DNA from: an uncultured Spirochaetota bacterium | Lineage (GTDB): Bacteria; Spirochaetota; Brevinematia; Brevinematales; JAOACQ01 | Length of the DNA stretch: 64,000 nucleotides | Reading direction: 5' to 3' | Assembly (NCBI GenBank): GCA_963783575.1 | Contig: CAWAOD010000005.1 | Location: 1 to 64,000, forward strand | Part shown: one piece after another, positions 1 through 21,496 of the stretch | How positions within the stretch are numbered: position 1 is the first letter of the stretch | Layout of the letters: every line of letters starts with the position of its first letter | The notes under the pieces: model-generated | The model's database searches: none | Seen by the model: only the letters and a program-made list of their open reading frames with translations | Told to the model about the DNA's origin: nothing | Position numbers and translations under genes: made by a program

Positions 1-2600
1 AACGCCCAGCCTTTCAGTCGATAAAGAAAAAGGTTTATACAACTGCTTCGGATGCGGAGAGGCCGGGGACGCTTTCGATCTGGTGGAAAAGATGAAAAGC
101 TTCGATTTCAAAGAGGCTTTGAAGTTCCTCAAGGATTGGAAAGCAGCCCTTCGGCTTGGTTTCGTTCTCACCGGTTTCCGCTGATTTACCACTTGAGGCG
201 GAACCTCTTGCTGTTACTGCCCCGGATCAGGGCGGAGCAAAAAACAAACCGCCGGAGAATTCGGCCGGCGCGGTCTTAAATTCTCCGGACGGCGATAGAC
301 TCAAAGGCCTGAACACGGTAAAAAACTATTATCATAAAAGGCTTTTCGACCATCCGGAAGCCCTGAATATCTCAAGAAAAGAGGCTTAACAAACGCGGAA
401 CATTATGAACGCTTTCAGATCGGCTTTGCCGACGGGGGTTTAAACCTTGTCATTGGTGAAAATCAAAAGCAGGCTTTAACCGATGCCGGAATATTAAACG
501 AGAAAGGGCGGGAACATTTCCTGAACTGCCTTATTTTTCCAATCTTTAACGACAACAATCAAACCATCGGTTTTTATGGTCGTGATATTAATGACAGTTC
601 AGGATTCAAACACCGCTATTTAAAAGGGCCACACAGTGGCGTTTTTAATCGTAAAGCTAGTAAAGTCTATGACGAAATAATTTTAACGGAGTGTATTATT
701 GATTGTCTAAGCCTTATTGAAACCGGTTTTGAGAATGTCCAGCCGATCTATGGGACAAATGGATTTACTGAAGAACACTTGCAAACTTTGAAGGCCGACA
801 GGGTTAAAACGTTTATTCTGGCGCTGGATAATGACGAAGCCGGGACGCTTGCCGGTGAAAAGCTGAAAGAAAGCTTTATTAATGAGGGTTTCAAGGTCAA
901 AATTGTTTCTCCTTTCGGCGGTAAAGACTGGAATGAAGCCTTAAAGGCTGGCGCATTGAAAAAAGATGACCTTAAAGTCTTAATTGAACAAGCCGCTATC
1001 TTTGAAGCAGAGAAAGATATTGAAAGTGACGCGTCACACGGCCTGAAGGTTACTCAGGAAGGATTCAGTACTATATTTGCATTTACCGACATTAGCTTAC
1101 AAGGTTTCGGGAGTTAAAGAGATATTTATTACAAGCCTGAGGGTCAATATCAAAGCGGAAACGGAGACGACAGATATTTTGATAACCTTGACCTGTATTC
1201 CGCCAGGTCGAGAACAAATTACAGCTTTCAGGTTTCCCGGATTTTCAGCATAGAACCTAAGCGGATCGAAAAGGATTTGATCACAATCCTTGAATACTTT
1301 GAGGACGAACGCGAGCGGCGGGGCCGCCTGGAAAATGAGAAAAGGATCGAAGACGGAATTAACCGAAAAAGAACGGGAAGCCGGGCTTAATTTCCTGAAA
1401 AGTCCCGGTCTGTTTCAGGAGATCGTCAAAGACATGGAAACATTGGGTTATGTCGGAGAAGACTTAAACAAGCAATTGTTATACCTTTGCGCCAGTTCCC
1501 GGATACTTGACGACCCGATAAGCGTGTTGATTCTTTCTGAGTCGGCTTCAGGAAAGTCCATGCTGGTTGAGACGGTGAAGAAATTAATTCCTTCTGAAGA
1601 TGTTGTCGCCGTTACCTCTCTTTCAGACCAGGCCTTAAACTACATAAAAGACTTAATGCATAAGTTTTTGATTCTCGGTGAAGCTGTTCATTCTGATGTC
1701 ATCGAACACCAGATCAGGGAGATACTTTCAGGTAAAGAACTTTCAAGGCTTGTGACTGTGAAGGACGAGAAAACCGGAAAGATGGAATCAAAGATTGTCA
1801 GAACCCCGGTGATCGTGGCCAGCGTCATGAGTTCGACAGGTTACAGCATAAATCCCGAAAACACATCAAGATGTTTTGTCATTAATACGGATGAATCGAG
1901 GGAACAGACCCGGAAAATCCATGAGATACAACGGCAGAAATATACATTATCCCGCCATTTTGAAAAAGCTTCAGTAATTCCCGAAATCATTAAAAAACAT
2001 CAAGCCGCTCAAAGGTTACTGCGTAAGATGCTTGTCGTCAATACCTTCGGCGGTTTCCTGAACTTTCCAGACAATCTGATGAGAACACGCCGGGATAATG
2101 ACCGCTTTCTTGACCTTATCGCCTGCGTTTGTTTTCTCCGGCAGTATCAAAAGCCCGTCAAATGGGAAGGGCTGACGGAATTTATCGAGTGCGATATTGA
2201 CGACTACCGGATAGCTTACAACATAATGATTAACGGCATACTGGCTTCCACAATGCTGGAAATGTCAAAGAGCGCCCTGGAGCTTTATGAGGCTTTAAGG
2301 GATATGGCCGTAAAATTATCAAAGAAAAGCAATCTGAAACCCAATGAAGTGAATTTTACACAAAGGGAAATCCGGGAAAATACCGGCTTTGGCCAGAGCT
2401 GGATAAAGCAAAACTTAAGGGTGCTGGTTGACTTTGAATATATTTCTATCCAGAGAGGCGGGGGAGAAAGGACGAAAGGCTTTTACCGTATAAGGGAGGA
2501 TGAAGAAATCAGGAAACTTAACCTTTCAATGATCCCGACGCCGGAAGAAATACAGGAAAAGATAAAAAATACAGATTCTAAAACTGGGCAAACTGGGTAA
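1..2600 (+). pseudogene. Primase-ATPase fusion, copy 1, frameshifted and 5'-truncated by the window
   Basis: Frame from nt 2 reads TPSLSVDKEKGLYNCFGCG (CHC2 zinc finger). ORFs 156-389, 779-1117 and 1290-2600 match successive parts of the intact 11481-14207 protein. Indels near ~150, ~363, ~1097 and ~1160 could be sequencing errors. Confidence 0.8.
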
Positions 2601-2670: not shown

Positions 2671-2714
2671 CCGGGAGGGAAAGGCCGGAAAAAAGAGACG
2701 AAGGAGAAAACAAA

Positions 2715-3974
2715 ATGTCTATAGAAAACTTAATTCAGGACTTTCTATCTTACTACAAAATACGGGGTTTTAAACATCAGGGCTTGATCGTCAAAAAGAA
2801 CGCCCTGCTTTTGTTTACGGCTTACCTCCGGGAAAAGCTGAATATTACAGAACCAGAAGGCTTGAGAAGCCTGACGAAAGAAAAGTTTGAAACTTTCGCC
2901 GATTATCTCAAAACCAAATTTCTTAGTAAAGACACAATCCGTACTTATGGCCAGGTCGCTAAATGTTTTCTAATGCGGAATGATCTTCTGCCGACTGGCA
3001 CGGGCTGGGGCAAGGCGAAGAAGGACTTACTCACCGGCCTGCCGGAGGAAATGATTTCCGTTTACTTTGAATACGTTGAAAAGCGGAAGAATGAAGGATA
3101 TCCCGCTTCAACAACCGGCAGGCTAGCGGAACATGCCCGGAACTTTTTGAAGTATCTTGTCTTTGAACGGAATGTTACAAGGTTTATTGACTTAAGAAAA
3201 GACGATGTAAAAGACTATGTTAAATACCTTGCCGATCAAACAGACATTGAAGGAAACCGCCTTTACGCTCCTTCTACCTTGCGGCAGAAAACCAACCTTG
3301 TCAAACCGTTCCTTATTTTTCTATCGAAGAAAGGGCTTTGCGGTGGGTTTTCCGGGCAGATGGGAAGCGTCAGGGCTGAAGACAAGGTTTCAAGAAATAT
3401 CCTGAACCGCAAGGAAGTTGTCAAGCTGTTTAACGTGAAGGCCGAAACCCCGCTTGAGTTTATGCTCAAAACAATTCAGGTAGTTTTGTATTCCTCCGGC
3501 GTGCGGATCGGAGAGCTTCTGGCTCTTAAGATTGAGGACATTAATTTTGAGGATCAGGAAGCCGTAATATTTGAGGCAAAGACGAACAATGAAAGGATTG
3601 TCCAGCTTGGCGATGTCGGCACGGCCTACCTGAAGCTTTTTATCGATAATGTCCGGCCTAATATCTGTCGTGGCTTTGTAGAAGGCACTCGTGCCTTTCC
3701 ATCGGCTTACGAAGGGAAAAACCCATGCAATGAAACCGTAAACCGGTATTTATCGAAAGCATGTACAAAAGCCGGTATCAAAAAGAAGATTACCTGTCAT
3801 TGCTTCCGGCATTCCTACGGAAGTCATTTACTTGAAAACGGGGCGGGAATCAAACAGGTTTCCGATCTGTTAGGCCATGAAAAGCTGGCCACAACGGAAA
3901 GATATACAAAGCTTTCACCGGAGCATCTCAGATTGACGCTTCTCAAGTATCATCCGAGGGAGTCATTAAAATGA
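2715..3974 (+). CDS. Tyrosine recombinase A (XerC/D-like, extended N-terminus)
   Basis: Catalytic motifs SSGVRIGEL, HCFRH, LLGH, TTERY; RBS aaggag upstream. Confidence 0.95.
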   Translation: MSIENLIQDFLSYYKIRGFKHQGLIVKKNALLLFTAYLREKLNITEPEGLRSLTKEKFETFADYLKTKFLSKDTIRTYGQVAKCFLMRNDLLPTGTGWGKAKKDLLTGLPEEMISVYFEYVEKRKNEGYPASTTGRLAEHARNFLKYLVFERNVTRFIDLRKDDVKDYVKYLADQTDIEGNRLYAPSTLRQKTNLVKPFLIFLSKKGLCGGFSGQMGSVRAEDKVSRNILNRKEVVKLFNVKAETPLEFMLKTIQVVLYSSGVRIGELLALKIEDINFEDQEAVIFEAKTNNERIVQLGDVGTAYLKLFIDNVRPNICRGFVEGTRAFPSAYEGKNPCNETVNRYLSKACTKAGIKKKITCHCFRHSYGSHLLENGAGIKQVSDLLGHEKLATTERYTKLSPEHLRLTLLKYHPRESLK

Positions 3975-4987
3975 ACGAACTCAAGATTGAAACCGTTAAA
4001 ACAATCGTTTCCGAAATCCTTACCAGCCGGAATTATTCGCCAGCCTCAATTGACAGTATGATCCGTATCCTGAAACGCTTCAATAATTATCTTGAGAGCT
4101 TGAAGAGGATGCATTCCATTGACTACCGGGACGTGAGGGAAAGCGATCTTTACGGATTTATGGAATATCTTGAGAAAGACTCTAAAAGAGGCATAAAAAA
4201 AGAAACTGTCCAAAACAACGCTTTGGCCATGAAGCGTCTTTTTCAAATACTTGAAAGAGAGGATAAAATACTTCAAAATCCATTCGGCGATGTTGAGATG
4301 AAAGGAAAGCGGCATAACATCCGGGATAAGGTGCTTTCCGAAAAAGAAATGAGGGACTTTATTGACGCTGTACCGGTCGATAATCCACTTGACTTCCGGA
4401 ACCGGACAATATTAGAACTTCTATACGGTACAGGCATAAGAGCAAGGGAACTCTGCAACCTTGAATTAACCGATATATTTCTGGATGAAAAAATGATTTT
4501 TATCCGAAACGGAAAAGGCAAGAAAGACAGAATCCTTCCGCTTGGAGAAACGCCGGTAAAATACCTTGCGGAATACATTAAAAAGATCAGGCCGAAATAC
4601 TCCCGGCTTCCCCGAAAGAAAGACCAGTCAAGGAAGTTGTTTCTGGGTAGTTTCGGGAAGTCTCTTTCAACCGGCGGACTCTCCGGGATTATCCGAAAGA
4701 TCAAGGAAGCCCAGGGAATTACAAAACCGGTTTACCCTCATATCATCCGTCATTCTTTCGCTACTCACCTTTTAAATGCCGGGGCGGATATCAGAGAAGT
4801 CCAGCTTCTTTTAGGGCATACAAGCCTTGACTCCACACAGATTTATTTGAACCTTTCGACTGCTTACTTGAAGGAAATTTACAGGAAATACCACCCGCTG
4901 GAAAACGAATTGTATTTTGATGTGTTATCGAGAGAAAGCCATATTTTTGAATGGAATAAATTTGATAAAAGCGGAGAAAAAAGGTAA
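3971..4987 (+). CDS. Tyrosine recombinase B (XerC/D-like)
   Basis: TGIRAREL, GKGKKDR, HIIRHSFATHLL, LLGH, TQIY; overlaps the stop of recombinase A. Confidence 0.95.
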   Translation: MNELKIETVKTIVSEILTSRNYSPASIDSMIRILKRFNNYLESLKRMHSIDYRDVRESDLYGFMEYLEKDSKRGIKKETVQNNALAMKRLFQILEREDKILQNPFGDVEMKGKRHNIRDKVLSEKEMRDFIDAVPVDNPLDFRNRTILELLYGTGIRARELCNLELTDIFLDEKMIFIRNGKGKKDRILPLGETPVKYLAEYIKKIRPKYSRLPRKKDQSRKLFLGSFGKSLSTGGLSGIIRKIKEAQGITKPVYPHIIRHSFATHLLNAGADIREVQLLLGHTSLDSTQIYLNLSTAYLKEIYRKYHPLENELYFDVLSRESHIFEWNKFDKSGEKR

Positions 4988-5009
4988 TATCTATATGGAG
5001 AAAACAATA

Positions 5010-5519
5010 ATGGAAAAAGAAAAAGTTTATCTGGATTCAACGATTCCGAGCTATATTGTTTCGCAGTTAAGCCGTGATTTTATCACGCTTTACCGTCAGG
5101 AAATGTCTATTATGTGGTGGGAAAAAGAGAGAAAAAGCTATGATTTGTATATCTCTGAAGTTGTGCTGGATGAGATTAAGGCCGGAGACTTGTTTTATTC
5201 TCAAAAACGGCTGGAATTGGTACGCAATTTAAAGGTTCTTGAATACAAGCCGGAGATTAAAGAAACAGCTTGGAAGTATATGGAATATTTTAATTTTTCA
5301 GAAAAACTTTTTGGCGATATGTATCACATTGCTTATTCAGTCCATTACAAAATGGGCTGTCTGCTGACATGGAATTTTTCACATCTGGCTAATGCTCAAA
5401 TTCGTGTGAGGCTTGAAAAATATAATGAGAAACTAGGCTTTGCAACACCGCAGATCGTCACGCCGGAAGAATTGAGAGAATTTAATCCATGGGAGGATAG
5501 CGAAGATGAAATCTATTGA
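5010..5519 (+). CDS. PIN-domain (VapC-like) toxin
   Basis: VYLDSTIPS, ISEVVLDE, D-x-x-H, LLTWNFSH. Start moved from 4917 to ATG 5010, which has a ggag RBS. Confidence 0.8.
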   Translation: MEKEKVYLDSTIPSYIVSQLSRDFITLYRQEMSIMWWEKERKSYDLYISEVVLDEIKAGDLFYSQKRLELVRNLKVLEYKPEIKETAWKYMEYFNFSEKLFGDMYHIAYSVHYKMGCLLTWNFSHLANAQIRVRLEKYNEKLGFATPQIVTPEELREFNPWEDSEDEIY

Positions 5520-5694
5520 TCCGATTGTAGAAGAAATGACGAATGCCGGGAAGAAAATACAGGAAGAATGCGGAAACGATTGGGATAAATTTGCTGAAAG
5601 GATTCAGGAGAATGAAAAGAAACTGAAAGCCGAAGGCTGGAAATTTGTCTCGGAAGTACCGGAACACAAAGAAGAAACGCCGGTTGCCTGTTAA
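5506..5694 (+). CDS. Small protein, putative partner/antitoxin of the PIN toxin
   Basis: 62 aa, overlaps the PIN gene stop, DPIVEE motif, homologue present in all three copies. Confidence 0.6.
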   Translation: MKSIDPIVEEMTNAGKKIQEECGNDWDKFAERIQENEKKLKAEGWKFVSEVPEHKEETPVAC

Positions 5695-5711
5695 TTTAAA
5701 GGAGACATGGC

Positions 5712-5966
5712 ATGTTTACATTGGTTAAATCGAAGCCGGTAGCAATGTCGGCGCGAGCTATAGATGTTAAGGTTACGAAAGAGGAATTGACGGTATTTCT
5801 TGAAGACGGCCGCGTGGTTTCCGCGCCGTTGGAATGGTTTCCACGATTAAGGAATGCTTCGGAAATCGAATTGAGCGAATGGGAATTTATCGGCGGCGGG
5901 ATCGGAATACATTGGGAATCTATAGATGAAGATATTTCCGTTAAAGGTTTGCTGGAAGCTGAATAG
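5712..5966 (+). CDS. DUF2442-like small protein (TA-associated)
   Basis: LEDGRVVSAPLEWFPRL...GIHWESIDEDISVKGLL; RBS aaggag. Confidence 0.8.
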   Translation: MFTLVKSKPVAMSARAIDVKVTKEELTVFLEDGRVVSAPLEWFPRLRNASEIELSEWEFIGGGIGIHWESIDEDISVKGLLEAE

Positions 5967-6045
5967 CATAAATTTCTGGTAAGTAAAAGGTTATAGGTCG
6001 TAAAAGCGGCATGAAAGGCCGTCTTTATTAAGTTTTGCTGCTCTG

Positions 6046-6888
6046 CATGGGTTTAGAGGGAATAGACCCCCCAGTTCTCCACAGGAGAATACACCATTGC
6101 AACTTTCATCTAAATTAACTGATAGAATTATTAGTGCAAATGGTATACCTCTGAACCCTGAAGAAGATTCAGCAAGCGCTACGATGTATGGTAAAACGTT
6201 GAACACTGTAAAAAGTATATATACTGTAAATATGAACGATTCGAATGCAGGAGAAGAAATAAAAACGGATGTAATTGCACAATTAAAGAACAACAAAATA
6301 GATCCATCTACAGGTAATCCCTATGTTATGATAAATGGAGTAAAAATAGAGTTTGATAAAAATCAATTGTCAAACATAGGCTTTGATGAAAATAATATGC
6401 AAGTAGCAATTGGGGGAAATACAAATCTTGTTTATGCAGTAGAGTACAGTGAACCTGAAACCTTTAAAGCATTAGTAGAATTTGCGGCTGCAAACCCAAC
6501 CCAAAACGGAGAACCAATTACAGTAGCAAGTATGTGGAGGCCACAAGTATCAGATAGAGCACACTTTGAAGGCAGAGCTGTTGACTTTGATAGTTTTTCT
6601 TCAGGTACTAAAGTAAATGCAGCTGAATCGGGAACAGTAAAATTGGCAGCACTTGGTGCTCCGGCTAATCATTATTCGGGCTATGGCTACTCTGTGGTAA
6701 TAAAGGGCAGTGACGGAACAGAGTATTTATATGCTCATAATCAAGAAAGCTCTTTCCAAGTTCAAAATGGAGCAACAGTTAATACAGGCAATTATATTTC
6801 GCAATCTGGTAGTTCGGGTCTGACATTTGGTAATCCTCATGTGCACTTTGAAGTAATAACACCTAATAATTCAATATATATACGATAA
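6046..6888 (+). CDS. Toxin-tip-like ORF 1: zinc metallopeptidase with M23-like C-terminal domain; true start uncertain
   Basis: SMWR...HFEGRAVD, then AAESGTV, GYGYSVVI, YLYAH, SGSSG and PHVHFEV. The frame is open upstream of the called TTG (6097) through the conserved junction HGFRGNRPPSSPQENTP. Confidence 0.7.
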   Translation, partial: HGFRGNRPPSSPQENTPLQLSSKLTDRIISANGIPLNPEEDSASATMYGKTLNTVKSIYTVNMNDSNAGEEIKTDVIAQLKNNKIDPSTGNPYVMINGVKIEFDKNQLSNIGFDENNMQVAIGGNTNLVYAVEYSEPETFKALVEFAAANPTQNGEPITVASMWRPQVSDRAHFEGRAVDFDSFSSGTKVNAAESGTVKLAALGAPANHYSGYGYSVVIKGSDGTEYLYAHNQESSFQVQNGATVNTGNYISQSGSSGLTFGNPHVHFEVITPNNSIYIR

Positions 6889-6903
6889 AGGCAGGTAATA
6901 AAT

Positions 6904-7875
6904 ATGAAATTAAAAAAGAATTTTGTGATAATGTTATTTATATTGATCATATCTAACGGACTTGCTTGGACGTCTGAACCAGAAAACCAACTGACAAATG
7001 AGTATTTTATCATTGGAACAAACGTTATGCTTAATGAGGTTCCGGATACTGGAGCAAAAGGGATTTTGTTGATGAATGAGTTTGATAAAGTTATGTTATC
7101 AGCTTCAAAGCCTGTAAATGACAACTATAATGTAATATTGAACGGAACAAACGGATGGGTTGATGTTTTCAATGTATCTTTGATACCCACAGATTGGATA
7201 AAGTTTAATAAAATAGATGAATTAATTTTATATTTTCCTAAAAATTTTAATTTTACATTTCATGAAAGTGAAAAGACAACAAATCGAAATAAAGATGGTT
7301 CAAAAGCAATTGAATATAAAATAGGTAATGATAATTTTTTGCTGGATATAAATTATATTTCAAACAAGACTTTTGAAAGTGAAGACAAGGCAACAATGAA
7401 TTATTATGGAATTAATGGATATTTTTATTCAGATTATAGTGCAGAAAATGGTAATAAGTTATTTGAATTAATGTTAGTAAATGAAATAAAAAAAGAATAT
7501 TATCAATTGGATTACTATTTTTCATCGGATAAACCTACCTATGAAGAAGAACTTACAGCAAAAAAAATATTATTTTCTGTTCGTATCAAAGACACAAACA
7601 AGTCAAGCGAGAAGCCATCCTCAGAATCAACAAGCTCCATATGCACCCTCACAGGCGACAATGTAAACGTGCGGGCGGAAGCGGCGACGAACGGAGCGGT
7701 GCTGGTAAAGCTCTCCAGGGGAGCGATTGTGACACTTTTGAAGCGGTCGGATATGGCTTTGACGGTGGGGGACAAGAAGGGGTTTTGGGCGTACATCGAT
7801 ACCCAGGTAACCAATAAGGATGGGGAGACGGTGAAGGGGTGGGTGTTTGATTATTATTTGAAACCGCTTGAGTAA
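6904..7875 (+). CDS. Secreted SH3-domain protein, putative immunity protein 1
   Basis: N-terminal signal peptide; SH3b-like GTNVMLNEVP..GWV and GDNVNVRAE..GWVFDYYL; directly follows the toxin ORF. Confidence 0.7.
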   Translation: MKLKKNFVIMLFILIISNGLAWTSEPENQLTNEYFIIGTNVMLNEVPDTGAKGILLMNEFDKVMLSASKPVNDNYNVILNGTNGWVDVFNVSLIPTDWIKFNKIDELILYFPKNFNFTFHESEKTTNRNKDGSKAIEYKIGNDNFLLDINYISNKTFESEDKATMNYYGINGYFYSDYSAENGNKLFELMLVNEIKKEYYQLDYYFSSDKPTYEEELTAKKILFSVRIKDTNKSSEKPSSESTSSICTLTGDNVNVRAEAATNGAVLVKLSRGAIVTLLKRSDMALTVGDKKGFWAYIDTQVTNKDGETVKGWVFDYYLKPLE

Positions 7876-8100
7876 AGAGGCTGTAACGGAAGCTTGCCGT
7901 TCAAAACTGTCTTTATGTAATTTGGCAAACTATCGCCTACTTTGCGATAAACGCCATTGAAACGGCGTCTATCTGGAAAGTAGGCGAAATTTGACGTGGG
8001 GTGCAGAGACTTCGACACGTGAGCATGCCGCGCCTGCCCGGCGAAAGTAATCTATTCTGCGGAAGTTTTCGGCGGGCGCCCGGATCAGGATGATGAAAGA

Positions 8101-8147
8101 AGCAGGTAAAATACCTTATTTTGGAGGTGATTTTACCTGCTTTTTTT
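8101..8147 (+). terminator. Rho-independent terminator
   Basis: Stem agcaggtaaaat...attttacctgct followed by a T run. Confidence 0.6.
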
Positions 8148-8730
8148 GTTGTGTGAACCTCACGGCCACGATTATTATACCGCTAAATCCGGAATTATCA
8201 AGGTCAAGCTCCCGCTGGTCGTGATCGCTGATGCGATCAACCTTGACAATTCCGGCTTTCGCTGGTTATGTGGTTATGGCCGTTCGGGGAAAATGTTATA
8301 ATTATAATCCCCGAAACCCTAATGACAGCGACCGGCGAGGATGGGAAAAAACAAGGGCAAAATGGGAAAAATACTACCCGACAGGGTGGAGATTTTTTTC
8401 ATTTTGGCGAAGCGAACCCTTGAACGACAGCGGTTTTTTCCTGTCCGGAGCGGTAAAATACACGAGGGTTGAGGGGTTCAAGAACCGGATCCGGAAAAAG
8501 TTAGATCTAGAAATTTCGATTTTTGATAACCGGGATCCGGAGCCCCGGAAGGTGATATCTAAACGGCAATATTTACAGCCGGGGCGGTGGGAGGGTGTGG
8601 AGGGTGCGGAAAGCTTGATAAGATGCGCCAGCCCGGTTTTTCCGGTGTGCCGCCGCCGAACGTTTGGCATAGACCCTGATGATAAAGGAACCGGTGATAA
8701 TAAAGTTTTAAAGTTTAAGTTAATATGACA

Positions 8731-8890
8731 ACTTAACATAATTTAGCCTTATGGGCAGGCGTTTGAACTATTGAGCCGTTTAATTATCGTAAAAACTCGA
8801 TTCAAGACTTTCAGAAGTATTTTTAAATGACGGGTTTAAAAAAAGCGCGATTGAAACGCTTGCTTGACGATAAGGCAAATTATGTAAAAG
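8731..8890. other. Inverted pair of dif-like (Xer-type) sites
   Basis: acttaacataa-tttagcc-ttatgggcagg (8731-8759) and cttgacgataa-ggcaaa-ttatgtaaaag (8863-8890). Compare E. coli dif GGTGCGCATAA-TGTATA-TTATGTTAAAT. Confidence 0.75.
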
Positions 8891-9029
8891 GCGGCCGGAA
8901 AAACAGACTTGCCGCCGAATGCCTGGGCGTCATCTCCGTCTAGCTAGCCCAGGCGTGAGAAGGCAAGAGAAACGGCACGGGATATCTAAACGGCAATGAT
9001 TATAGGAATTGGGGGGATAACTCAGTTTA

Positions 9030-9440
9030 TTATTTTGTAATGACTTCAATTTCTTCAATTCTCTTAAAATCATCAACGTTAATGGTTACAAGCTTATTAA
9101 TTCCGCCAGCCAGCATAATGGAAACAATTTCAAAGTCATAAACCCGGTTACCTATTGGTTTATACTTTAATACAAGGTCGTTAAATATTTCTGTGCTGAA
9201 AGAATCCGGGTAAACGATTTGGAACCGTAAAGGAATCTTTTCCAATTCATTTTCAATGATCTCGTAAAGGCCAAGTTTGGACATAACACAGGTAAATTCA
9301 GTGATCGATTTACTGGCGAAGTAGATATATCCAGGATTATGTTCAATGATTTCTCTGGAGTATTCAAAAAATTCTGATTTTTTATTGAACGAGTAAACAA
9401 GGATATTGGTGTCAATAAAAAAATAGCTATCAATCTTCAT
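9030..9440 (-). CDS. PIN-domain (VapC-like) toxin
   Basis: FFIDTNILVY...VYDFEIVSIM...VTINVDDF. Start moved to ATG 9440, which overlaps the antitoxin stop. Confidence 0.85.
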   Translation of the reverse strand: MKIDSYFFIDTNILVYSFNKKSEFFEYSREIIEHNPGYIYFASKSITEFTCVMSKLGLYEIIENELEKIPLRFQIVYPDSFSTEIFNDLVLKYKPIGNRVYDFEIVSIMLAGGINKLVTINVDDFKRIEEIEVITK

Positions 9441-9627
9441 GGGCAAAATCCCTGATGTTAATTTTGTCCAGGTCTTTGCTGAATTCATAGACGCCAAAGT
9501 CAGAAGTTTGCTTTTTATCCTTCTCAGTTACAATCCAGACTTTGATTTTAGTATTATCTTTGAGCGGAATCGGTTTATTTATTTCAATATGTCCTTTATG
9601 ATAGACACCATCGATTAATTGATGCAT
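9430..9627 (-). CDS. Putative antitoxin (AF2212/DUF104-like)
   Basis: IDGVYHKGHIEINKPIPL, 65 aa, coupled upstream of the PIN gene. Confidence 0.7.
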   Translation of the reverse strand: MHQLIDGVYHKGHIEINKPIPLKDNTKIKVWIVTEKDKKQTSDFGVYEFSKDLDKINIRDFAHED

Positions 9628-9721
9628 AATTTTACCTCCCGAAGAAAGGATAAAGATTCTTCTTTGTTATATCAAGTTTTATTTAATAATCAAGAAATGG
9701 TATCCATAGTATCTCCTTGAT

Positions 9722-10072
9722 TTATTGGGTAACTATATGTTTAATCTGGTTTTTAACCAGAAAAGCATTGATCAGTTCTTTAATGACTTTCTTGTCGTTT
9801 TCCGGTAAGTTTTCCACAGCCTTAAAATCCCTTAAGAGTTCTTCATCACTGAAAGAAACTTTGACGGCGTTGTCGGCATCGTCGTTTAAAAGGTAATCAA
9901 TAGACACCTCAAAGACGGAAGCTAGTTTCTTTAATGTCTCTGTGGAAGGCACTTGTTGATTCCCTTCGTATTTACCGACATGAGAATAATGTACACCGAT
10001 AAGGTTGCCTAATTCAGTCTGACTTAGACTTTTCTTTTTTCTAAATTCTTTTATTTTTTCGCCTAAAGTCAT
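9722..10072 (-). CDS. XRE-family HTH repressor
   Basis: LGEKIKEFRKKKSLSQTELG...YE...PS...LASVFEVSIDYLL; divergent from the main operon. Confidence 0.9.
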   Translation of the reverse strand: MTLGEKIKEFRKKKSLSQTELGNLIGVHYSHVGKYEGNQQVPSTETLKKLASVFEVSIDYLLNDDADNAVKVSFSDEELLRDFKAVENLPENDKKVIKELINAFLVKNQIKHIVTQ

Positions 10073-10173
10073 AATAATTTCCTCTTATACTAAAATACGC
10101 TGTTTATATTATAATTATATGAGAAAACAAGATAAAAATCAATTCAAAAAATGCTATTATAGAATAAAAGGAC

Positions 10174-10202
10174 TTGACAAAATAACATGGATATGTTATA
10201 TT
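10174..10202 (+). promoter_or_regulatory. Sigma70-type promoter of the element operon, copy 2
   Basis: TTGACA-17 bp-TATATT; an equivalent promoter sits at the same place in copy 3. Confidence 0.7.
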
Positions 10203-10260
10203 ATGACGTTCGGGTGTTATATTAAAATATTTTTTAGATAAGGAAAAAAGATAACAAAAG

Positions 10261-10397
10261 AAAGCCCCTGTTTCCCAAAGTTTGGCGACCTAAAAGAAAC
10301 AAGGGCTTTTAACTCCGAGGGTTTAACCTCGAATTTATTATACATTATTCATTGAACTAAATCAAGAAGCATTGCTTCAATTCGAGGCGTAACCCTC
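10261..10397 (+). promoter_or_regulatory. Putative structured 5' leader (two stems)
   Basis: Stems aaagccc...gggcttt and gagggtttaacctcgaa/ttcgaggcgtaaccctc; the equivalent in copy 3 co-varies. Confidence 0.5.
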
Positions 10398-10428
10398 CAT
10401 AAAATTTTATTTTTAGGAGGGACCCGTC

Positions 10429-10707
10429 ATGTCAGGTCTTATCAGTACCACAGACCTTTATGAAGTATGTTTTTATCTAATGCAGGGCTTCAAAATCGAA
10501 AAGGTCGAGATCGTAAACCAGAACCACAAGGAAATGGGAAAATTTATTTTATCCGGCGAAGGAATCCAGAAGGCGCAGCTTGTTTATTTCAACGGTGAAG
10601 CCACAGTCAATATTATGGACTTCCGGCGTACTTACAGCCAGTTGACAACGCTTGTAGGGCAGGCAAAAAGGGAACTCAGGGAAATGAAAGCCCCCGGCTC
10701 TATTTAG
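10429..10707 (+). CDS. Small conserved element protein (DUF5659-like, tentative)
   Basis: RBS aggagg; TTDLYEVCFYL motif; homologue at 26300-26575. Confidence 0.65.
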   Translation: MSGLISTTDLYEVCFYLMQGFKIEKVEIVNQNHKEMGKFILSGEGIQKAQLVYFNGEATVNIMDFRRTYSQLTTLVGQAKRELREMKAPGSI

Positions 10708-10717
10708 GGGGCTGGCC

Positions 10718-11479
10718 ATGACAAAAACAATTGTTTTCAGTAACCAAAAAGGCGGAGTTGGCAAAACCACGACCACCAGAGAGTTAGGCATTTACCTTTC
10801 AGAAAAAAACTTTAGAGTCTTATTAATCGACTGCGACCCTCAAGCGAACCTTTCTAAAAGCCTTGTCGATATTCCGGGCTTTGGTTTATATGAAGCGTTG
10901 GCAGGTGGAGAGTATGAACCGGAAGATGTAAAGCTTAATTTGTCCCTATTATCCGGCGGGGTGAAGCTGGCCGGGCTGGAGAAATCTTTAATTGGAGAAG
11001 TTGACGCTTTTACAAGGCTCAAAGATTTATTGGAAGGTGAAATCTTCCAGACTTATGACTTTATTTTAATTGACAGTCCGCCATCCTTGAGTGTGCTAAC
11101 CGGTAACGCTTTAACCGCATCGAACTTTGTTGTTATTCCTATGAACCCTTCGCTTTATTCAATGCAAGGCACTAATGATTTAATGGCCACGGTATCAAAG
11201 ATCAGGAAAAACTTCAATCCGGGTTTGCAGCTCCTCGGGGTGATAATCAACGCTTATGAATCTAATCCGGTAATTACAAGACAGATCCATGGAGAGATCC
11301 GGGAAGCTTTCGGGGAAAAAGTCTTTAATACGTCAATTTCTAGATCTATTCGTATTGAAGAAGCTATCGCCTTGAAATCCGGCGTTATATCTCGTACCCG
11401 TGTCGATGGGCGGCCATCGAAGGCCGCTGAAGAGGTCAAGGCCATCGGTGAGGAAATGCTTTTAAGGCTGGGGGTGTAA
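10718..11479 (+). CDS. parA: ParA/Soj family ATPase
   Basis: NQKGGVGKTTT, LIDCDPQAN, ILIDSPPSL. Confidence 0.9.
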   Translation: MTKTIVFSNQKGGVGKTTTTRELGIYLSEKNFRVLLIDCDPQANLSKSLVDIPGFGLYEALAGGEYEPEDVKLNLSLLSGGVKLAGLEKSLIGEVDAFTRLKDLLEGEIFQTYDFILIDSPPSLSVLTGNALTASNFVVIPMNPSLYSMQGTNDLMATVSKIRKNFNPGLQLLGVIINAYESNPVITRQIHGEIREAFGEKVFNTSISRSIRIEEAIALKSGVISRTRVDGRPSKAAEEVKAIGEEMLLRLGV

Positions 11480-11480
11480 A

Positions 11481-14207
11481 ATGACCGGGATGCCTCCAAA
11501 ACGAGACCCGCTAAGAGGGCAAAAGACCCTGCGGGTCACAGATTTTCTTGAGGAGTTTGAAGTTGACGACATCAAACGGAAAGTCGATATTGTAGAATTG
11601 TTTGAAAGCTTCGGCGTAAAGCTTACAAAGTCCGGTAAAAGCTTCAAAGGTTTCTGTCCATGGCACAAAGACAGCAAAACTCCAAGCCTGTCTATTAGCC
11701 GGGAAAAGGGCTTATTTCACTGTTTCGGCTGTGATGAAGGCGGAACAGTTGTCGATGCCGTGATGAAATTCAAAAGCATTGATTTCAAAGAATCGTTAAA
11801 ATTCTTAAAAGAATGGCCCGGAAGTCCTTTAAAAGAGGTTCCTTTAACTGTCCGGAAGATGGAAGTCAAACCCGAAGAAAAACAAACATCTACAGAGAGC
11901 GGAAACATTCATAATCTTAATGCAGTAAAGAATTATTATCATAAAAGACTTTTCGACCATCCGGAAGCCCTTGAATATCTCAAGAAAAGAGGCTTAACAA
12001 ACACGGAACATTATGAACGCTTTCAGATCGGCTTTGCCGACGGGGGTTTAAACCTTGTCATTGGTGAAAAGCAAAAGCAGGCTTTAACAGATGCCGGAAT
12101 CTTAAACGAGAAAGGGCGGGAACATTTCCTGAACTGCCTTATTTTTCCAATCTTTAACGACAACAATCAAACCATCGGTTTTTATGGCCGTGATACTAAT
12201 GACGGCTCAGACTTCAAACACCGCTATTTAAAAGGGCCACACAGCGGCGTTTTTAATCGTAAAGCTAGTAAAGTGTATGATGAAATCATTTTAACGGAGT
12301 GTATTATTGATTGTCTAAGCCTTATTGAAACCGGCTTTGAGAATGTCCAGCCGATCTATGGAACAAACGGCTTTACAGAAGAACACTTACAAATTTTGAA
12401 AGCCGACAGGGTTAAAACGGTCATTCTGGCGCTGGATAATGACGAAGCCGGGACGCTTGCCAGTGAAAAGCTGAAAGAAAGCCTTATTAATGAGGGTTTC
12501 AAGGTCAAAATTGTTTCTCCTTTCGGCGGTAAAGACTGGAACGACGCCTTAAAGGCTGGCGCATTGAAAAAAGATGACCTTAAAGTCTTAATTGAACAAG
12601 CCGCTATCTTTGAAGCAGAGAAAGATATTGAAAGTGACGCGTCACACGGCCTGAAGGTTACTCAGGAAGGATTCGGCACCATATTTGCATTTGTTGATAT
12701 TACTTACAAGGTTTCGGGAGTTAAAGAAACATTTATTACCAGCCTGCGTGTAAATATCAAAGCCGAGAACGGAGACGACAGATATTTTGACAACCTTGAC
12801 CTGTACTCCGCCCGGTCAAGATCGAATTACAGTTTTCAAGTTTCCCGGATTTTCAGCATTGAACCGAAACGGATCGAAAAGGATTTGATCACAATTCTTG
12901 AATACTTTGAGGACGAACGCGAGCGGCGCAGCCGCCTTGAAAATGAGAAAGAATCGAAGCCGGAATTAACCGAAAAAGAACGGAAAGCCGGGCTTAATTT
13001 CCTGAAAAGTCCCGGTCTGTTTCAGGAGATCGTCAAAGACATGGAAACATTGGGTTATGTCGGAGAAGACTTAAACAAGCAATTGCTATACCTTTGCGCC
13101 AGTTCCCGGATACTTGACGACCCGATAAGCGTGTTGATTCTTTCTGAGTCGGCTTCAGGAAAGTCCATGCTGGTTGAGACGGTGAAGAAATTAATTCCTT
13201 CTGAAGATGTTGTCGCCGTTACCTCTCTTTCAGACCAGGCCTTGAACTACATCAAAGACTTAATGCATAAGTTTTTGATTCTCGGTGAAGCTGTTCATTC
13301 TGATGTCATCGAACACCAGATCAGGGAGATACTTTCAGGTAAAGAACTTTCAAGGCTTGTGACTGTGAAGGATGAGAAAACCGGAAAGATGGAATCAAAG
13401 ATTGTCAGAACCCCGGTGATCGTGGCCAGCGTCATGAGTTCGACGGGTTTCAACATAAATCCCGAAAACACATCAAGATGTTTTGTCATTAATACGGATG
13501 AATCGAGGGAACAGACCCGGAAAATCCATGAGATACAACGGCAGAAATATACATTATCCCGCCATTTTGAAAAAGCTTCAGTAATTCCCGAAATCATTAA
13601 AAAACATCAAGCCGCTCAAAGGTTACTGCGTAAGATGCTTGTCGTCAATACCTTCGGCGGTTTCCTGAACTTTCCAGACAATCTGATGAGAACACGCCGG
13701 GACAATGACCGCTTTCTTGACCTTATCGCCTGCGTTTGTTTTCTCCGGCAGTATCAAAAGCCTGTCAAATGGGAAGGGCTGACGGAATTTATCGAGTGCG
13801 ATATTGACGACTACCGGATAGCTTACAACATAATGATTAACGGCATACTGGCTTCCACAATGCTGGAAATGTCAAAGAGCGCCCTGGAGCTTTATGAGGC
13901 TTTAAGGGATATGGCCGTAAAATTATCAAAGAAAAGCAATCTGAAACCCAATGAAGTGAATTTTACACAAAGGGAAATCCGGGAAAATACCGGCTTTGGC
14001 CAGAGCTGGATAAAGCAAAACTTAAGGGTGCTGGTTGACTTTGAATATATTTCTATCCAGAGAGGCGGGGGAGAAAGGACGAAAGGCTTTTACCGTATAA
14101 GGGAGGATGAAGAAATCAGGAAACTTAACCTTTCAATGATCCCGACGCCGGAAGAAATACAGGAAAAGATAAAAAATACAGATTCTAAAACTGGGCAAAC
14201 TGGGTAA
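11481..14207 (+). CDS. DnaG-like primase (CHC2 zinc finger + TOPRIM) fused to a P-loop ATPase/helicase-like domain and a probable C-terminal winged helix
   Basis: CPWH...CFGC, GFYGR, LTECIID, LALDNDEAG, KDWND; SESASGKS Walker A-like motif; SRCF; C-terminal FTQREIRE. Confidence 0.88.
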   Translation: MTGMPPKRDPLRGQKTLRVTDFLEEFEVDDIKRKVDIVELFESFGVKLTKSGKSFKGFCPWHKDSKTPSLSISREKGLFHCFGCDEGGTVVDAVMKFKSIDFKESLKFLKEWPGSPLKEVPLTVRKMEVKPEEKQTSTESGNIHNLNAVKNYYHKRLFDHPEALEYLKKRGLTNTEHYERFQIGFADGGLNLVIGEKQKQALTDAGILNEKGREHFLNCLIFPIFNDNNQTIGFYGRDTNDGSDFKHRYLKGPHSGVFNRKASKVYDEIILTECIIDCLSLIETGFENVQPIYGTNGFTEEHLQILKADRVKTVILALDNDEAGTLASEKLKESLINEGFKVKIVSPFGGKDWNDALKAGALKKDDLKVLIEQAAIFEAEKDIESDASHGLKVTQEGFGTIFAFVDITYKVSGVKETFITSLRVNIKAENGDDRYFDNLDLYSARSRSNYSFQVSRIFSIEPKRIEKDLITILEYFEDERERRSRLENEKESKPELTEKERKAGLNFLKSPGLFQEIVKDMETLGYVGEDLNKQLLYLCASSRILDDPISVLILSESASGKSMLVETVKKLIPSEDVVAVTSLSDQALNYIKDLMHKFLILGEAVHSDVIEHQIREILSGKELSRLVTVKDEKTGKMESKIVRTPVIVASVMSSTGFNINPENTSRCFVINTDESREQTRKIHEIQRQKYTLSRHFEKASVIPEIIKKHQAAQRLLRKMLVVNTFGGFLNFPDNLMRTRRDNDRFLDLIACVCFLRQYQKPVKWEGLTEFIECDIDDYRIAYNIMINGILASTMLEMSKSALELYEALRDMAVKLSKKSNLKPNEVNFTQREIRENTGFGQSWIKQNLRVLVDFEYISIQRGGGERTKGFYRIREDEEIRKLNLSMIPTPEEIQEKIKNTDSKTGQTG

Positions 14208-14277
14208 AACTGGTCATTGTCCAGTTTATAGCTGTAAAACCAATATTATCAAGCTTTCTTAAAACTGGGCACAGTTT
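14186..14277 (+). repeat. AAACTGG(G) repeats, putative origin/iterons, copy 2
   Basis: Same sequence as 2579-2670. Confidence 0.6.
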
Positions 14278-14321
14278 CCGGGAGGGAAAGGCCGGAAAAA
14301 AGAGACGAAGGAGAAAACAAA

Positions 14322-15581
14322 ATGTCTATAGAAAACTTAATTCAGGACTTTCTATCTTACTACAAAATACGGGGTTTTAAACATCAGGGCTTGATCGTCA
14401 AAAAGAACGCCCTGCTTTTGTTTACGGCTTACCTCCGGGAAAAGCTGAATATTACAGAACCAGAAGGCTTGAGAAGCCTGACGAAAGAAAAGTTTGAAAC
14501 TTTCGCCGATTATCTCAAAACCAAATTTCTTAGTAAAGACACAATCCGTACTTATGGCCAGGTCGCTAAATGTTTTCTAATGCGGAATGATCTTCTGCCG
14601 ACTGGCACGGGCTGGGGCAAGGCGAAGAAGGACTTACTCACCGGCCTGCCGGAGGAAATGATTTCCGTTTACTTTGAATACGTTGAAAAGCGGAAGAATG
14701 AAGGATATCCCGCTTCAACAACCGGCAGGCTAGCGGAACATGCCCGGAACTTTTTGAAGTATCTTGTCTTTGAACGGAATGTTACAAGGTTTATTGACTT
14801 AAGAAAAGACGATGTAAAAGACTATGTTAAATACCTTGCCGATCAAACAGACATTGAAGGAAACCGCCTTTACGCTCCTTCTACCTTGCGGCAGAAAACC
14901 AACCTTGTCAAACCGTTCCTTATTTTTCTATCGAAGAAAGGGCTTTGCGGTGGGTTTTCCGGGCAGATGGGAAGCGTCAGGGCTGAAGACAAGGTTTCAA
15001 GAAATATCCTGAACCGCAAGGAAGTTGTCAAGCTGTTTAACGTGAAGGCCGAAACCCCGCTTGAGTTTATGCTCAAAACAATTCAGGTAGTTTTGTATTC
15101 CTCCGGCGTGCGGATCGGAGAGCTTTTGGCTCTTAAGATTGAGGACATTAATTTTGAGGATCAGGAAGCCGTAATATTTGAGGCAAAGACGAACAATGAA
15201 AGGATTGTCCAGCTTGGCGATGTCGGCACGGCCTACCTGAAGCTTTTTATCGATAATGTCCGGCCTAATATCTGTCGTGGCTTTGTAGAAGGCACTCGTG
15301 CCTTTCCATCGGCTTACGAAGGGAAAAACCCATGCAATGAAACCGTAAACCGGTATTTATCGAAAGCATGTACAAAAGCCGGTATCAAAAAGAAGATTAC
15401 CTGTCATTGCTTCCGGCATTCCTACGGAAGTCATTTACTTGAAAACGGGGCGGGAATCAAACAGGTTTCCGATCTGTTAGGCCATGAAAAGCTGGCCACA
15501 ACGGAAAGATATACAAAGCTTTCACCGGAGCATCTCAGATTGACGCTTCTCAAGTATCATCCGAGGGAGTCATTAAAATGA
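14322..15581 (+). CDS. Tyrosine recombinase A, copy 2
   Basis: Protein matches 2715-3974. Confidence 0.95.
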   Translation: MSIENLIQDFLSYYKIRGFKHQGLIVKKNALLLFTAYLREKLNITEPEGLRSLTKEKFETFADYLKTKFLSKDTIRTYGQVAKCFLMRNDLLPTGTGWGKAKKDLLTGLPEEMISVYFEYVEKRKNEGYPASTTGRLAEHARNFLKYLVFERNVTRFIDLRKDDVKDYVKYLADQTDIEGNRLYAPSTLRQKTNLVKPFLIFLSKKGLCGGFSGQMGSVRAEDKVSRNILNRKEVVKLFNVKAETPLEFMLKTIQVVLYSSGVRIGELLALKIEDINFEDQEAVIFEAKTNNERIVQLGDVGTAYLKLFIDNVRPNICRGFVEGTRAFPSAYEGKNPCNETVNRYLSKACTKAGIKKKITCHCFRHSYGSHLLENGAGIKQVSDLLGHEKLATTERYTKLSPEHLRLTLLKYHPRESLK

Positions 15582-16594
15582 ACGAACTCAAGATTGAAAC
15601 CGTTAAAACAATCGTTTCCGAAATCCTTACCAGCCGGAATTATTCGCCAGCCTCAATTGACAGTATGATCCGTATCCTGAAACGCTTCAATAATTATCTT
15701 GAGAGCTTGAAGAGGATGCATTCCATTGACTACCGGGACGTGAGGGAAAGCGATCTTTACGGATTTATGGAATATCTTGAGAAAGACTCTAAAAGAGGCA
15801 TAAAAAAAGAAACTGTCCAAAACAACGCTTTGGCCATGAAGCGTCTTTTTCAAATACTTGAAAGAGAGGATAAAATACTTCAAAATCCATTCGGCGATGT
15901 TGAGATGAAAGGAAAGCGGCATAACATCCGGGATAAGGTGCTTTCCGAAAAAGAAATGAGGGACTTTATTGACGCTGTACCGGTCGATAATCCACTTGAC
16001 TTCCGGAACCGGACAATATTAGAACTTCTATACGGTACAGGCATAAGAGCAAGGGAACTCTGCAACCTTGAATTAACCGATATATTTCTGGATGAAAAAA
16101 TGATTTTTATCCGAAACGGAAAAGGCAAGAAAGACAGAATCCTTCCGCTTGGAGAAACGCCGGTAAAATACCTTGCGGAATACATTAAAAAGATCAGGCC
16201 GAAATACTCCCGGCTTCCCCGAAAGAAAGACCAGTCAAGGAAGTTGTTTCTGGGTAGTTTCGGGAAGTCTCTTTCAACCGGCGGACTCTCCGGGATTATC
16301 CGAAAGATCAAGGAAGCCCAGGGAATTACAAAACCGGTTTACCCTCATATCATCCGTCATTCTTTCGCTACTCACCTTTTAAATGCCGGGGCGGATATCA
16401 GAGAAGTCCAGCTTCTTTTAGGGCATACAAGCCTTGACTCCACACAGATTTATTTGAACCTTTCGACTGCTTACTTGAAGGAAATTTACAGGAAATACCA
16501 CCCGCTGGAAAACGAATTGTATTTTGATGTGTTATCGAGAGAAAGCCATATTTTTGAATGGAATAAATTTGATAAAAGCGGAGAAAAAAGGTAA
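15578..16594 (+). CDS. Tyrosine recombinase B, copy 2
   Basis: Protein matches 3971-4987. Confidence 0.95.
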   Translation: MNELKIETVKTIVSEILTSRNYSPASIDSMIRILKRFNNYLESLKRMHSIDYRDVRESDLYGFMEYLEKDSKRGIKKETVQNNALAMKRLFQILEREDKILQNPFGDVEMKGKRHNIRDKVLSEKEMRDFIDAVPVDNPLDFRNRTILELLYGTGIRARELCNLELTDIFLDEKMIFIRNGKGKKDRILPLGETPVKYLAEYIKKIRPKYSRLPRKKDQSRKLFLGSFGKSLSTGGLSGIIRKIKEAQGITKPVYPHIIRHSFATHLLNAGADIREVQLLLGHTSLDSTQIYLNLSTAYLKEIYRKYHPLENELYFDVLSRESHIFEWNKFDKSGEKR

Positions 16595-16616
16595 TATCTA
16601 TATGGAGAAAACAATA

Positions 16617-17126
16617 ATGGAAAAAGAAAAAGTTTATCTGGATTCAACGATTCCGAGCTATATTGTTTCGCAGTTAAGCCGTGATTTTATCACGCTTTAC
16701 CGTCAGGAAATGTCTATTATGTGGTGGGAAAAAGAGAGAAAAAGCTATGATTTGTATATCTCTGAAGTTGTGCTGGATGAGATTAAGGCCGGAGACTTGT
16801 TTTATTCTCAAAAACGGCTGGAATTGGTACGCAATTTAAAGGTTCTTGAATACAAGCCGGAGATTAAAGAAACAGCTTGGAAGTATATGGAATATTTTAA
16901 TTTTTCAGAAAAACTTTTTGGCGATATGTATCACATTGCTTATTCAGTCCATTACAAAATGGGCTGTCTGCTGACATGGAATTTTTCACATCTGGCTAAT
17001 GCTCAAATTCGTGTGAGGCTTGAAAAATATAATGAGAAACTAGGCTTTGCAACACCGCAGATCGTCACGCCGGAAGAATTGAGAGAATTTAATCCATGGG
17101 AGGATAGCGAAGATGAAATCTATTGA
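16617..17126 (+). CDS. PIN-domain toxin, copy 2
   Basis: Matches 5010-5519. Confidence 0.8.
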   Translation: MEKEKVYLDSTIPSYIVSQLSRDFITLYRQEMSIMWWEKERKSYDLYISEVVLDEIKAGDLFYSQKRLELVRNLKVLEYKPEIKETAWKYMEYFNFSEKLFGDMYHIAYSVHYKMGCLLTWNFSHLANAQIRVRLEKYNEKLGFATPQIVTPEELREFNPWEDSEDEIY

Positions 17127-17301
17127 TCCGATTGTAGAAGAAATGACGAATGCCGGGAAGAAAATACAGGAAGAATGCGGAAACGATTGGGATAAATTTG
17201 CTGAAAGGATTCAGGAGAATGAAAAGAAACTGAAAGCCGAAGGCTGGAAATTTGTCTCGGAAGTACCGGAACACAAAGAAGAAACGCCGGTTGCCTGTTA
17301 A
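17113..17301 (+). CDS. Small putative antitoxin, copy 2
   Basis: Matches 5506-5694. Confidence 0.6.
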   Translation: MKSIDPIVEEMTNAGKKIQEECGNDWDKFAERIQENEKKLKAEGWKFVSEVPEHKEETPVAC

Positions 17302-17318
17302 TTTAAAGGAGACATGGC

Positions 17319-17573: not shown

Positions 17574-17652
17574 CATAAATTTCTGGTAAGTAAAAGGTTA
17601 TAGGTCGTAAAAGCGGCATGAAAGGCCGTCTTTATTAAGTTTTGCTGCTCTG

Positions 17653-18381: not shown

Positions 18382-18383
18382 AT

Positions 18384-19349: not shown

Positions 19350-19480
19350 AGCCCCAATTCTAAAAACTTCAATCTTTATCTTTACCGGTTCTTTTATTTG
19401 TAGGTACTGGGTCTAACGCTCAGGGTTTCGACAGGGCTGACGCCGTCATCAAGCTTTGTCGCAGGCCCCAACCCGCCCGT

Positions 19481-21496
<2,016 letters not shown>

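Follow-up and report, generated by a model that had tools for sequence, protein, structure and literature searches.

A motif of 42 bases in a spirochaete genome is the border between a mobile element, which encodes a primase and recombinases, and the tip of a Rhs toxin. We consider it probable that this motif is an attachment site, at which a circular element inserts into a Rhs gene by its own tyrosine recombinases, supplies a new tip and displaces the old one. The window in this work is the whole stretch of DNA that was analysed, 64,000 nucleotides in length (G000:C5:1-64000), and G001 is the assembly of a relative of the same genus.

Results

Element units in the window

The window contains three tandem units, built of DUF5659, ParA, a CHC2/Toprim primase of ~910 aa, two tyrosine recombinases and a variable TA slot. 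Behind every unit lie a junction, a tip and a predicted immunity gene. The features of the units are as follows.

1-2600, plus strand: unit 1 primase gene, which the contig start truncates and which is frameshifted within the first 1.3 kb
2715-4987, plus strand: two tyrosine recombinase genes of unit 1 (419 and 338 aa)
4917-5966, plus strand: TA slot of unit 1 (PIN, DUF2442)
6068-17674, plus strand: element unit 2 as predicted by the preferred model, running from tip 1 through immunity gene, spacer, HTH, DUF5659, ParA, primase, two recombinases and TA to the left arm
9722-10072, minus strand: HTH gene before the core of unit 2
10429-14207, plus strand: DUF5659, ParA and the 908-aa CHC2/Toprim primase of unit 2
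14322-16594, plus strand: two tyrosine recombinase genes of unit 2
16524-17573: TA slot of unit 2 (PIN, DUF2442, as in unit 1)
17675-33416, plus strand: element unit 3 as predicted by the preferred model, running from tip 2 through immunity gene, spacer, core and leader to the left arm
26300-30083, plus strand: DUF5659-like gene, ParA and the 912-aa primase of unit 3
30246-32509, plus strand: two tyrosine recombinase genes of unit 3
32532-33042, plus strand: TA slot of unit 3 (YefM-YoeB)

Unit 3 has intact recombinases adjoining the junction, and both retain the catalytic motifs R, HxxR, H and Y. Both scored below the cut-offs for XerC, XerD and integron integrase; integron identity was rejected (TIGR02249, 118 and 115 bits versus a cut-off of 265), and a link to the IntKX group was examined and dropped. 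At strict thresholds, the first recombinase was found in 2 of 41 and 2 of 401 genomes, which were G000 and G001 only, so its close family is narrow among the genomes searched. The element cores are mosaics, and homologous exchange is therefore frequent.

The spacer of unit 3 carries two group II introns, at 19481-21496 (near-identical copies on C9 and C14) and at 21841-23814 (a copy on C15). Farther downstream, a glycine-rich frame at 37668-38384 lies behind an IS gene (35774-37027) and bears a weak likeness (E 0.04) to the C-terminal remnant of a Rhs. Long palindromes adjoin it, at 37242-37384 and 37568-37691.

The junction motif

The motif occurs three times in the window.

6049-6090, plus strand: junction copy 1, with an element-specific left half (6049-6067) and a right half shared with the carrier (6068-6090)
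17656-17697, plus strand: junction copy 2, right half from 17675
33398-33439, plus strand: junction copy 3, right half from 33417

It was also present in four sister elements and one remnant. A preliminary description of this DNA had stated that copies 1 and 2 are nearly identical up to 6090 and 17697 and diverge directly behind. Our comparison agreed with it: two mismatches (3519 and 6074) were found within 2700-6090, and only 22 of 100 bases were identical in the stretch past the motif. The same description had extended a similar stretch of about 50 nt to copy 3; the similarity is real (84% over 44 nt, E 0.076 taken alone), but the conserved length is 42 nt. Its translations of the three junctions in the toxin frame were exactly reproduced.

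When a matrix was built from the four non-window copies only, the window copies scored 50-53 bits against a background of at most 21. A degenerate pattern matched 6 times in G000, 2 times in G001 and 0 times in the reversed control. The junction motif is real, beyond chance. We treated as chance a match of 23 bits at C15:101813, which falls in an unrelated 943-aa frame.

The motif is constrained as DNA, not as protein. Over 7 copies, pS was 0.076 and pN was 0.222, values that come from 21 non-independent pairs and cover only 14 codons, the contrast nonetheless being large. For comparison, the leaders gave pS of 0.27-0.40, near 0.38 for the one adjoining the motif, with pN of 0.13-0.26, and the recombinase gave 0.505 and 0.059. 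Codon 11 of the motif encodes five residues across the copies with one single third base. At the same time, the DNA upstream of the motif is of at least three types, and the tips downstream are of at least eight. The motif thus stays conserved where the modules on its two sides are exchanged, and one half is common to the target gene; an attachment site has this look, and we infer this role from that arrangement. A palindrome at the C run is unsupported, because none of the 8 best placements of inverted symmetry has its centre there; the best symmetry of the junction falls within each half separately, not across the C run.

Two solo remnants, C13:136100-136770 and C9:242400-243200 (minus strand), consist of the final 60-80 nt of the gene for the second recombinase, a TA pair and the junction. 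In a comparison with G001, which is 57% complete, for empty sites, their flanks were non-adjacent or not found. Non-tip DNA follows the junction in both remnants, and the TA slot may move as a cassette. The viral contigs gave 0 motif matches and only 2 unrelated recombinase loci.

A Rhs gene carries the right half of the motif

The junction had been proposed to be a frame-preserving crossover point for fusing silent orphan tips to a carrier protein. Such a carrier was found, a Rhs gene of 3,753 aa on C15 (RHS_repeat, TIGR03696), which contains the right half in the same frame and reads ...NNQTPISPPSSVAGNTPS... 280 aa before its C-terminal end. Tips diverge right behind this stretch in both the element and the carrier contexts, which also favours the proposal. 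Two parts of it did not stand. The carrier contains only half of the motif, namely the right 23 nt, and the left half is absent; furthermore, not all of the tips are silent, and the motif most likely ends a whole replicative element.

When the right-half matrix was run over 4.9 Mb, the five element junctions ranked first (34-40 bits) and the carrier sixth (31 bits), the remainder scoring at most 20. In G000, the right halves of carrier and elements share 16-22 of 23 nt in the same codon phase, with exact runs of 6-15 nt; for copy 3 and the carrier site at G000:C15:37684 (minus strand), 20 of 23 bases are equal. An exact identity of 6-15 nt is too short for ordinary homologous recombination. 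Between the carrier and its sister copy C15a, identity was 24% in the 100-column bin that ends at the C run, and it rose to 98, 96 and 94% behind the run. Copy 1 (6049-6090) is likely an attachment site, with the crossover predicted at the C run 6068-6074. Two features of site-specific elements were found in G000, an intact recombinase by the site and a short direct repeat with the target gene. The DNA behind the carrier's immunity gene is also element-type (79 nt, 96% to that of another unit), as the insertion model predicts.

Other carriers were compared. P0012, 1 of 2 matches among 7,490 candidates searched, has the carrier's pre-tip and the same doubled motif with a different tip directly behind; upstream of the motif, about 57 aa are also common to it and the carrier. 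Among 7 carrier-type sequences, the doubled motif was present in 2, a single PISP in 1, and the motif was absent in 4. G001 has the same locus with a Rhs gene and two recombinase pairs. In its Rhs gene before the array, the right-half DNA site was absent (best 7.2 bits), and only the residues PISP are found, encoded with synonymous differences. This G001 carrier (G001:C17:34513-46899) is in several pieces, with short repeated insertions and a lipase-like tip at its end.

Directly behind the Rhs gene on C15 stand two complete units and the start of a third, and the contig ends within the third primase. C5 starts inside another copy; because the two end copies are only 76.5% alike, C15 and C5 were not joined. 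They are likely one array with a gap. One Rhs core was found in the assembly, which is 90% complete. The window tips begin about 330 aa behind PxxxxDPxG, and the core fragment is absent from them.

Distant relatives of the element

The primase matched 40 plasmid records, of which 12 were examined, among the 25 matches listed; the primase of these distant relatives is 31% identical. In Enterobacter (L052), an exact repeat of 7,698 bp runs from the VENN codons of cdiA to the VENN codons of the next unit, with an overlap of 13 bp. The order there is cdiA, tip X, immunity, HTH, primase, xerC, TA, leader, tip X, core, leader and tip Y. L053 and L054 share cdiA and 17.4 kb at 99.7%; their tips switch at the 13-bp VENN-coding word, and tip and immunity remain linked to the core that follows. 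The three Enterobacter records (L052, L053 and L054) are close kin. In Lonsdalea (L050), a circular record of 11.3 kb holds two units, and both tips start at one 14-bp DPIG-coding word. Inverted arms around the Enterobacter and Lonsdalea sites were seen by eye.

The leader of the Enterobacter element (L052:18862-19902) resembles a lipoprotein signal peptide fused to the VENN tip, and with such a leader a displaced CdiA tip would be exported alone.

Carriers were tested at 9 loci. Three records were left out: L050 has no carrier, L053 is truncated by the start of its record, and no border could be placed in L051 (Leptospira). In seven of the nine, an in-frame stretch with a sharp left border is common to the carrier and the ORF behind the recombinase, a count in which the shared words of L057 (11 nt) and of the first junction in L055 (10 nt) are no longer than chance allows. 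One of the seven has about 460 aa of homology. The shared in-frame stretch was absent in the other two carrier-bearing loci, L056 and L060.

The family was also seen in other settings. In Providencia (L060:4053-12920) the primase family lies behind an invasin-domain gene, and on the Leptospira plasmid (L051) it is found in tandem units of 16.4 kb with two recombinases.

The elements of the Enterobacter and Lonsdalea type have one recombinase, which is 23-30% identical to the spirochaete's two, so that it is by likeness that we infer the same mechanism for the spirochaete.

A pattern scan of metagenomes gave 17 loci. Seven are true relatives, closer than the plasmid ones, and the other 10 were rejected as chance matches in unrelated genes. 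The 42-nt motif was absent in the seven relatives (best 2.6 bits). Six of them have sequence behind the recombinase, and all six show Rhs pieces or a DPxG-like motif there, with differing start points; core pieces are retained in four. The same recombinase tail is followed by tips starting at differing points of the Rhs core in L029, L031, L034, L036, L030, L039 and P0011, and the tips of L029 and P0011 start at nearly one same residue.

Paired sites in the spacers

The spacers contain a second kind of candidate site.

8730-8891, no strand: dif-like inverted pair in the spacer, with 7-bp and 6-bp centres, the entry site in an alternative reading
19204-19350: further dif-like pair
24627-24789: further dif-like pair
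35533-35562: single dif-like site

We take these sites to be dif-like, and C14:285693 to be a host-like dif candidate, by likeness to the dif consensus. GC skew gave no terminus signal. Similar pairs are also present on G000:C15 and in G001. The two sites of a pair are separated by 55-130 bp, and pairs of either orientation stand around a stretch of variable cargo. Such pairs could fold like a CTX-type site, and could resolve circle dimers or invert the cargo.

The elements might enter at these spacer sites instead, by the host XerCD or by their own enzymes. The tip would then follow the core, and the junction would be a zone of short homology used for occasional RecA or illegitimate exchange. 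We regard this as unlikely. Paired inverted sites in each spacer fit such an entry, and in all 3 of its occurrences in G000 and G001 leader type A stands before one tip family, as for tips travelling with the upstream core. The mosaic cores with their frequent homologous exchange, the G001 carrier without the DNA site, the several differing start points on the carrier and the overlap of P0012 with it also point this way; homologous recombination would give the last two likewise. However, the exact identity with the carrier is only 6-15 nt, and the DNA conservation of the left half, which carriers lack, is left unexplained. Element-type DNA extends on both sides of the first and the last dif-like site. 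Moreover, the dif-like site pattern was absent in five of the six proteobacterial loci, whose units repeat junction to junction, and the sixth gave one loose match.

Tips, starts and leaders

The tips and their neighbours in the window are as follows.

6049-6888, plus strand: tip 1, with an M23 peptidase domain (Pfam PF01551, E 3.4e-16) and a possible own start, TTG at 6097
6904-7875, plus strand: predicted immunity protein 1, with a hydrophobic N-terminus and an SH3 domain; function predicted from position
17656-18381, plus strand: tip 2, with no Pfam match and no usable start found
18384-18995, plus strand: predicted immunity protein 2, with a hydrophobic N-terminus; function predicted
33236-34249, plus strand: leader, junction and tip 3, the tip being 71% identical to that of the C15 Rhs carrier
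34271-35152, plus strand: predicted immunity protein 3, with a hydrophobic N-terminus and weak beta-propeller matches; function predicted

All three window tips are homologous to the C-termini of full-length Rhs proteins or of a Rhs fragment. Tip 1 matched the C-terminus of full-length Rhs P0002 (BLASTP E 1e-13; 1 of 3 matches among 2,086 candidates searched), and tip 2 that of Rhs fragment P0013 (47% identity over 198 aa; the sole match among 1,462 candidates searched). Pfam and NCBIfam gave no family name for any new tip. The HxxxxxxD and HxH motifs of tip 2 hint at an M15-like peptidase (Atlas leads below 0.9), and the Cys...His pattern of tip 3 at an amidase; the Atlas lead for tip 3 was Tae4 (0.90, 49% of members). 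A single-sequence fold of copy 3 was discarded (pLDDT 40).

Tip 1 (6097-6888), tip 2, P0002 and P0013 are mosaics: they have in common a stretch SM(W/Y)R...H...G.A.D, after which one tip pair has M23 and the other an M15-like domain.

Copies 1 and 2 had been thought to lack a good in-frame start or RBS. This holds for copy 2, in which neither of the two in-frame TTG codons within the first 70 codons has an SD match of at least 4 nt, but not for copy 1, in which the TTG at 6097 is in frame with AGGAG 9 nt upstream. AGGAG is also found 9 nt before an in-frame start in the C11 copy of G001. In copy 3, no SD match accompanies the in-frame ATG at 33395; the reading frame already begins at 33236, 54 codons before it, with a leader of 54 aa (11 K/R).

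Eight of ten motif-bearing tips lie behind a conserved leader, which is in frame in seven of the eight. A leader-profile search of 1.84 billion proteins found 7, four from G000 and G001 and three new ones (P0005-P0007), each with the leader, the motif and a different tip. We take the HxG...GC pattern in P0005 and P0006 to be like that of L,D-transpeptidase-fold toxins. The leader family (33236-33397 in the window; P0004-P0010) is basic and helical, 42-54 aa long, and at least six types of tip are found with it; its peptide could serve in export or in crossing a membrane.

Another explanation is that the motif serves the expression of stand-alone tips (as a leader-linker peptide, an RNA structure with an RBS, or a -1 frameshift at G GGT TTA) and that no carrier fusion occurs through it. 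The in-frame leaders, with pN/pS of about 0.5-0.7, the AGGAG before the starts of copy 1 and the C11 copy, and the two hairpins (-15 kcal/mol) formed by copies 1 and 2 speak for it. So does the heptamer at the four 3-G loci, which we take to be slippery in form, the tip lying in the -1 frame. Against this, the fold is not conserved across 7 copies, the out-of-frame ATG has no SD match, the residues of the motif vary more than its silent sites, and the right half lies within the coding sequence of the carrier with a sharp homology border. We therefore hold this explanation to be quite improbable, while expression of stand-alone tips as such can be compatible with the attachment-site model. At 6046-6056 and 17653-17663, ATG GGT TTA contains a heptamer of the form X XXY YYZ; the tip is in the -1 frame, and a hairpin follows.

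The preliminary description had also suggested a one-base on/off switch, copies 1 and 2 being one G shorter than copy 3. That a switch, or a sequencing error, in this G run toggles tips 1 and 2 is very hard to credit: the difference is real (three G in copies 1 and 2 versus four in copy 3 and two other copies), and frameshifts occur elsewhere in the assembly, but phase-variable tracts have about 7 or more bases, far above the 3 or 4 G of this run, the 3-G form is present at four loci of the assembly, and the ATG of copies 1 and 2 has no SD match, the DNA upstream not being homologous to the leader of copy 3.

Discussion

In the attachment-site model, the free element would be a circle of tip, immunity gene, spacer, HTH, DUF5659, ParA, primase, two recombinases, TA pair, leader and site. 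Crossover at the C run would join the Rhs body in frame with the tip of the circle, and the tip that stood there before would end up, together with its immunity gene, at the far end, behind the element's left arm. There, the displaced tip may be expressed from a leader (copy 3) or from an internal start (copy 1), or may likely be silent (copy 2). Repeated insertions would build a tandem array, excision would restore or recapture a tip, and the host would retain every immunity gene through the insertions. For this lineage, no excised circle, empty site or chimeric read was seen (contigs of relatives only). The contigs of 4 runs over 15500-35400 and 32700-33900 showed no joint at a junction, and none bridged one.

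Some features of the model are known from other integrative elements. e14 in icd and SXT in prfC insert in a gene and restore its 3' end. The element would resemble them in the insertion by a tyrosine recombinase inside a coding sequence with the frame kept, and it resembles them in its tandem arrays. In contrast to them, the replacement would be a different functional domain with its own immunity gene. The CTX phage is an element that exploits Xer and has paired dif-like sites. Our spacers have such pairs too, but CTX-type elements have no recombinase of their own and are inserted at the chromosomal dif, whereas each unit here has two recombinases.

Displacement of Rhs tips has been described before. 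Jackson et al. 2009 (PMC2935791) reported detached tips strung behind full-length rhs, and proposed an episomal circle that enters by a single crossover through homologous recombination, a new tip coming in and the old one being shunted downstream; in the parts of that paper available to us, a stable circle is required and no integrase is noted with Rhs. Our model is like this displacement in that insertion of a circle swaps the tip and the old tip goes downstream. In contrast to it, the window tips ride a primase-ParA-two-recombinase unit, have no core fragment and share only the short exact runs with the carrier. Classical orphan Rhs tips differ from the window tips in having the PxxxxDPxG core fragment, and the orphan trait of no translation start applies to copy 2 only, copy 1 having its TTG with AGGAG and copy 3 its leader.

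Orphan cdiA-CT/cdiI modules have VENN codons as their boundaries, some sharing only the motif with cdiA (Poole et al. 2011, PMC3150448); the accessible sections of that paper call the mechanism unknown and name no recombinase or replicon. These modules likewise span from one short in-frame motif to the next. The boundary in the spirochaete is a Pro/Ser linker about 330 aa behind the DPxG of Rhs, and in the Enterobacter relatives it is the VENN codons themselves. In Salmonella, an orphan tip became active after a fusion of rhs-main and rhs-orphan through 522 bp of 95% identity (Koskiniemi et al. 2014, PMC3967940), which, as far as the available text tells, needs no mobile element, in contrast to our model. 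Rhs tips made from internal starts have been reported (Starsta et al. 2020, PMC7043789).

Recombinases near tips or immunity genes have been noted several times: Rhs-associated integrases with a suspected role in tip exchange in bee-gut bacteria (Steele et al. 2017, PMC5727410), XerC/D adjoining poly-immunity loci (Zhang et al. 2012, PMC3482391), and recombinases near tip and immunity genes (bioRxiv 10.64898/2026.07.13.738213, citing Martinkus et al. 2026). Steele et al. and Zhang et al. thus place a tyrosine recombinase by tips or immunity genes, yet give no attachment site, element unit or primase in their available portions. A Neisseria study, in its accessible part, places dif sites at effector clusters, and the available text of Kirchberger et al. 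2017 (PMC5361080) gives no integrase evidence in effector displacement. The openly accessible literature, covered in its main texts, gave no account of a primase-recombinase element with its site inside a toxin gene, and a prior description elsewhere is possible.

Taking the relatives together, we lean, with some reserve, towards a broader view. The primase/recombinase/TA elements may be a widespread, undescribed class of self-replicating elements whose attachment site is the domain border in a polymorphic toxin gene. Their insertion would re-arm a Rhs, CdiA or related carrier and keep the old tip with its immunity gene, the displaced tip coming to lie behind an element-encoded leader. The recombinases would have been retargeted in each lineage, from spirochaetes to proteobacteria.

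How tips are replaced while the old tip and its immunity persist has been an open question since 2009-2011. The junction supplies a named site, enzymes and a unit, so the mechanism is testable by a plasmid assay. Under the model, many of the blocks annotated as 'CHC2 primase-xerC' that lie behind toxin genes would be vehicles of toxin exchange, and it would supply recombinases for joining protein domains in frame at short sites. If true, this element class would be the missing engine of C-terminal displacement.
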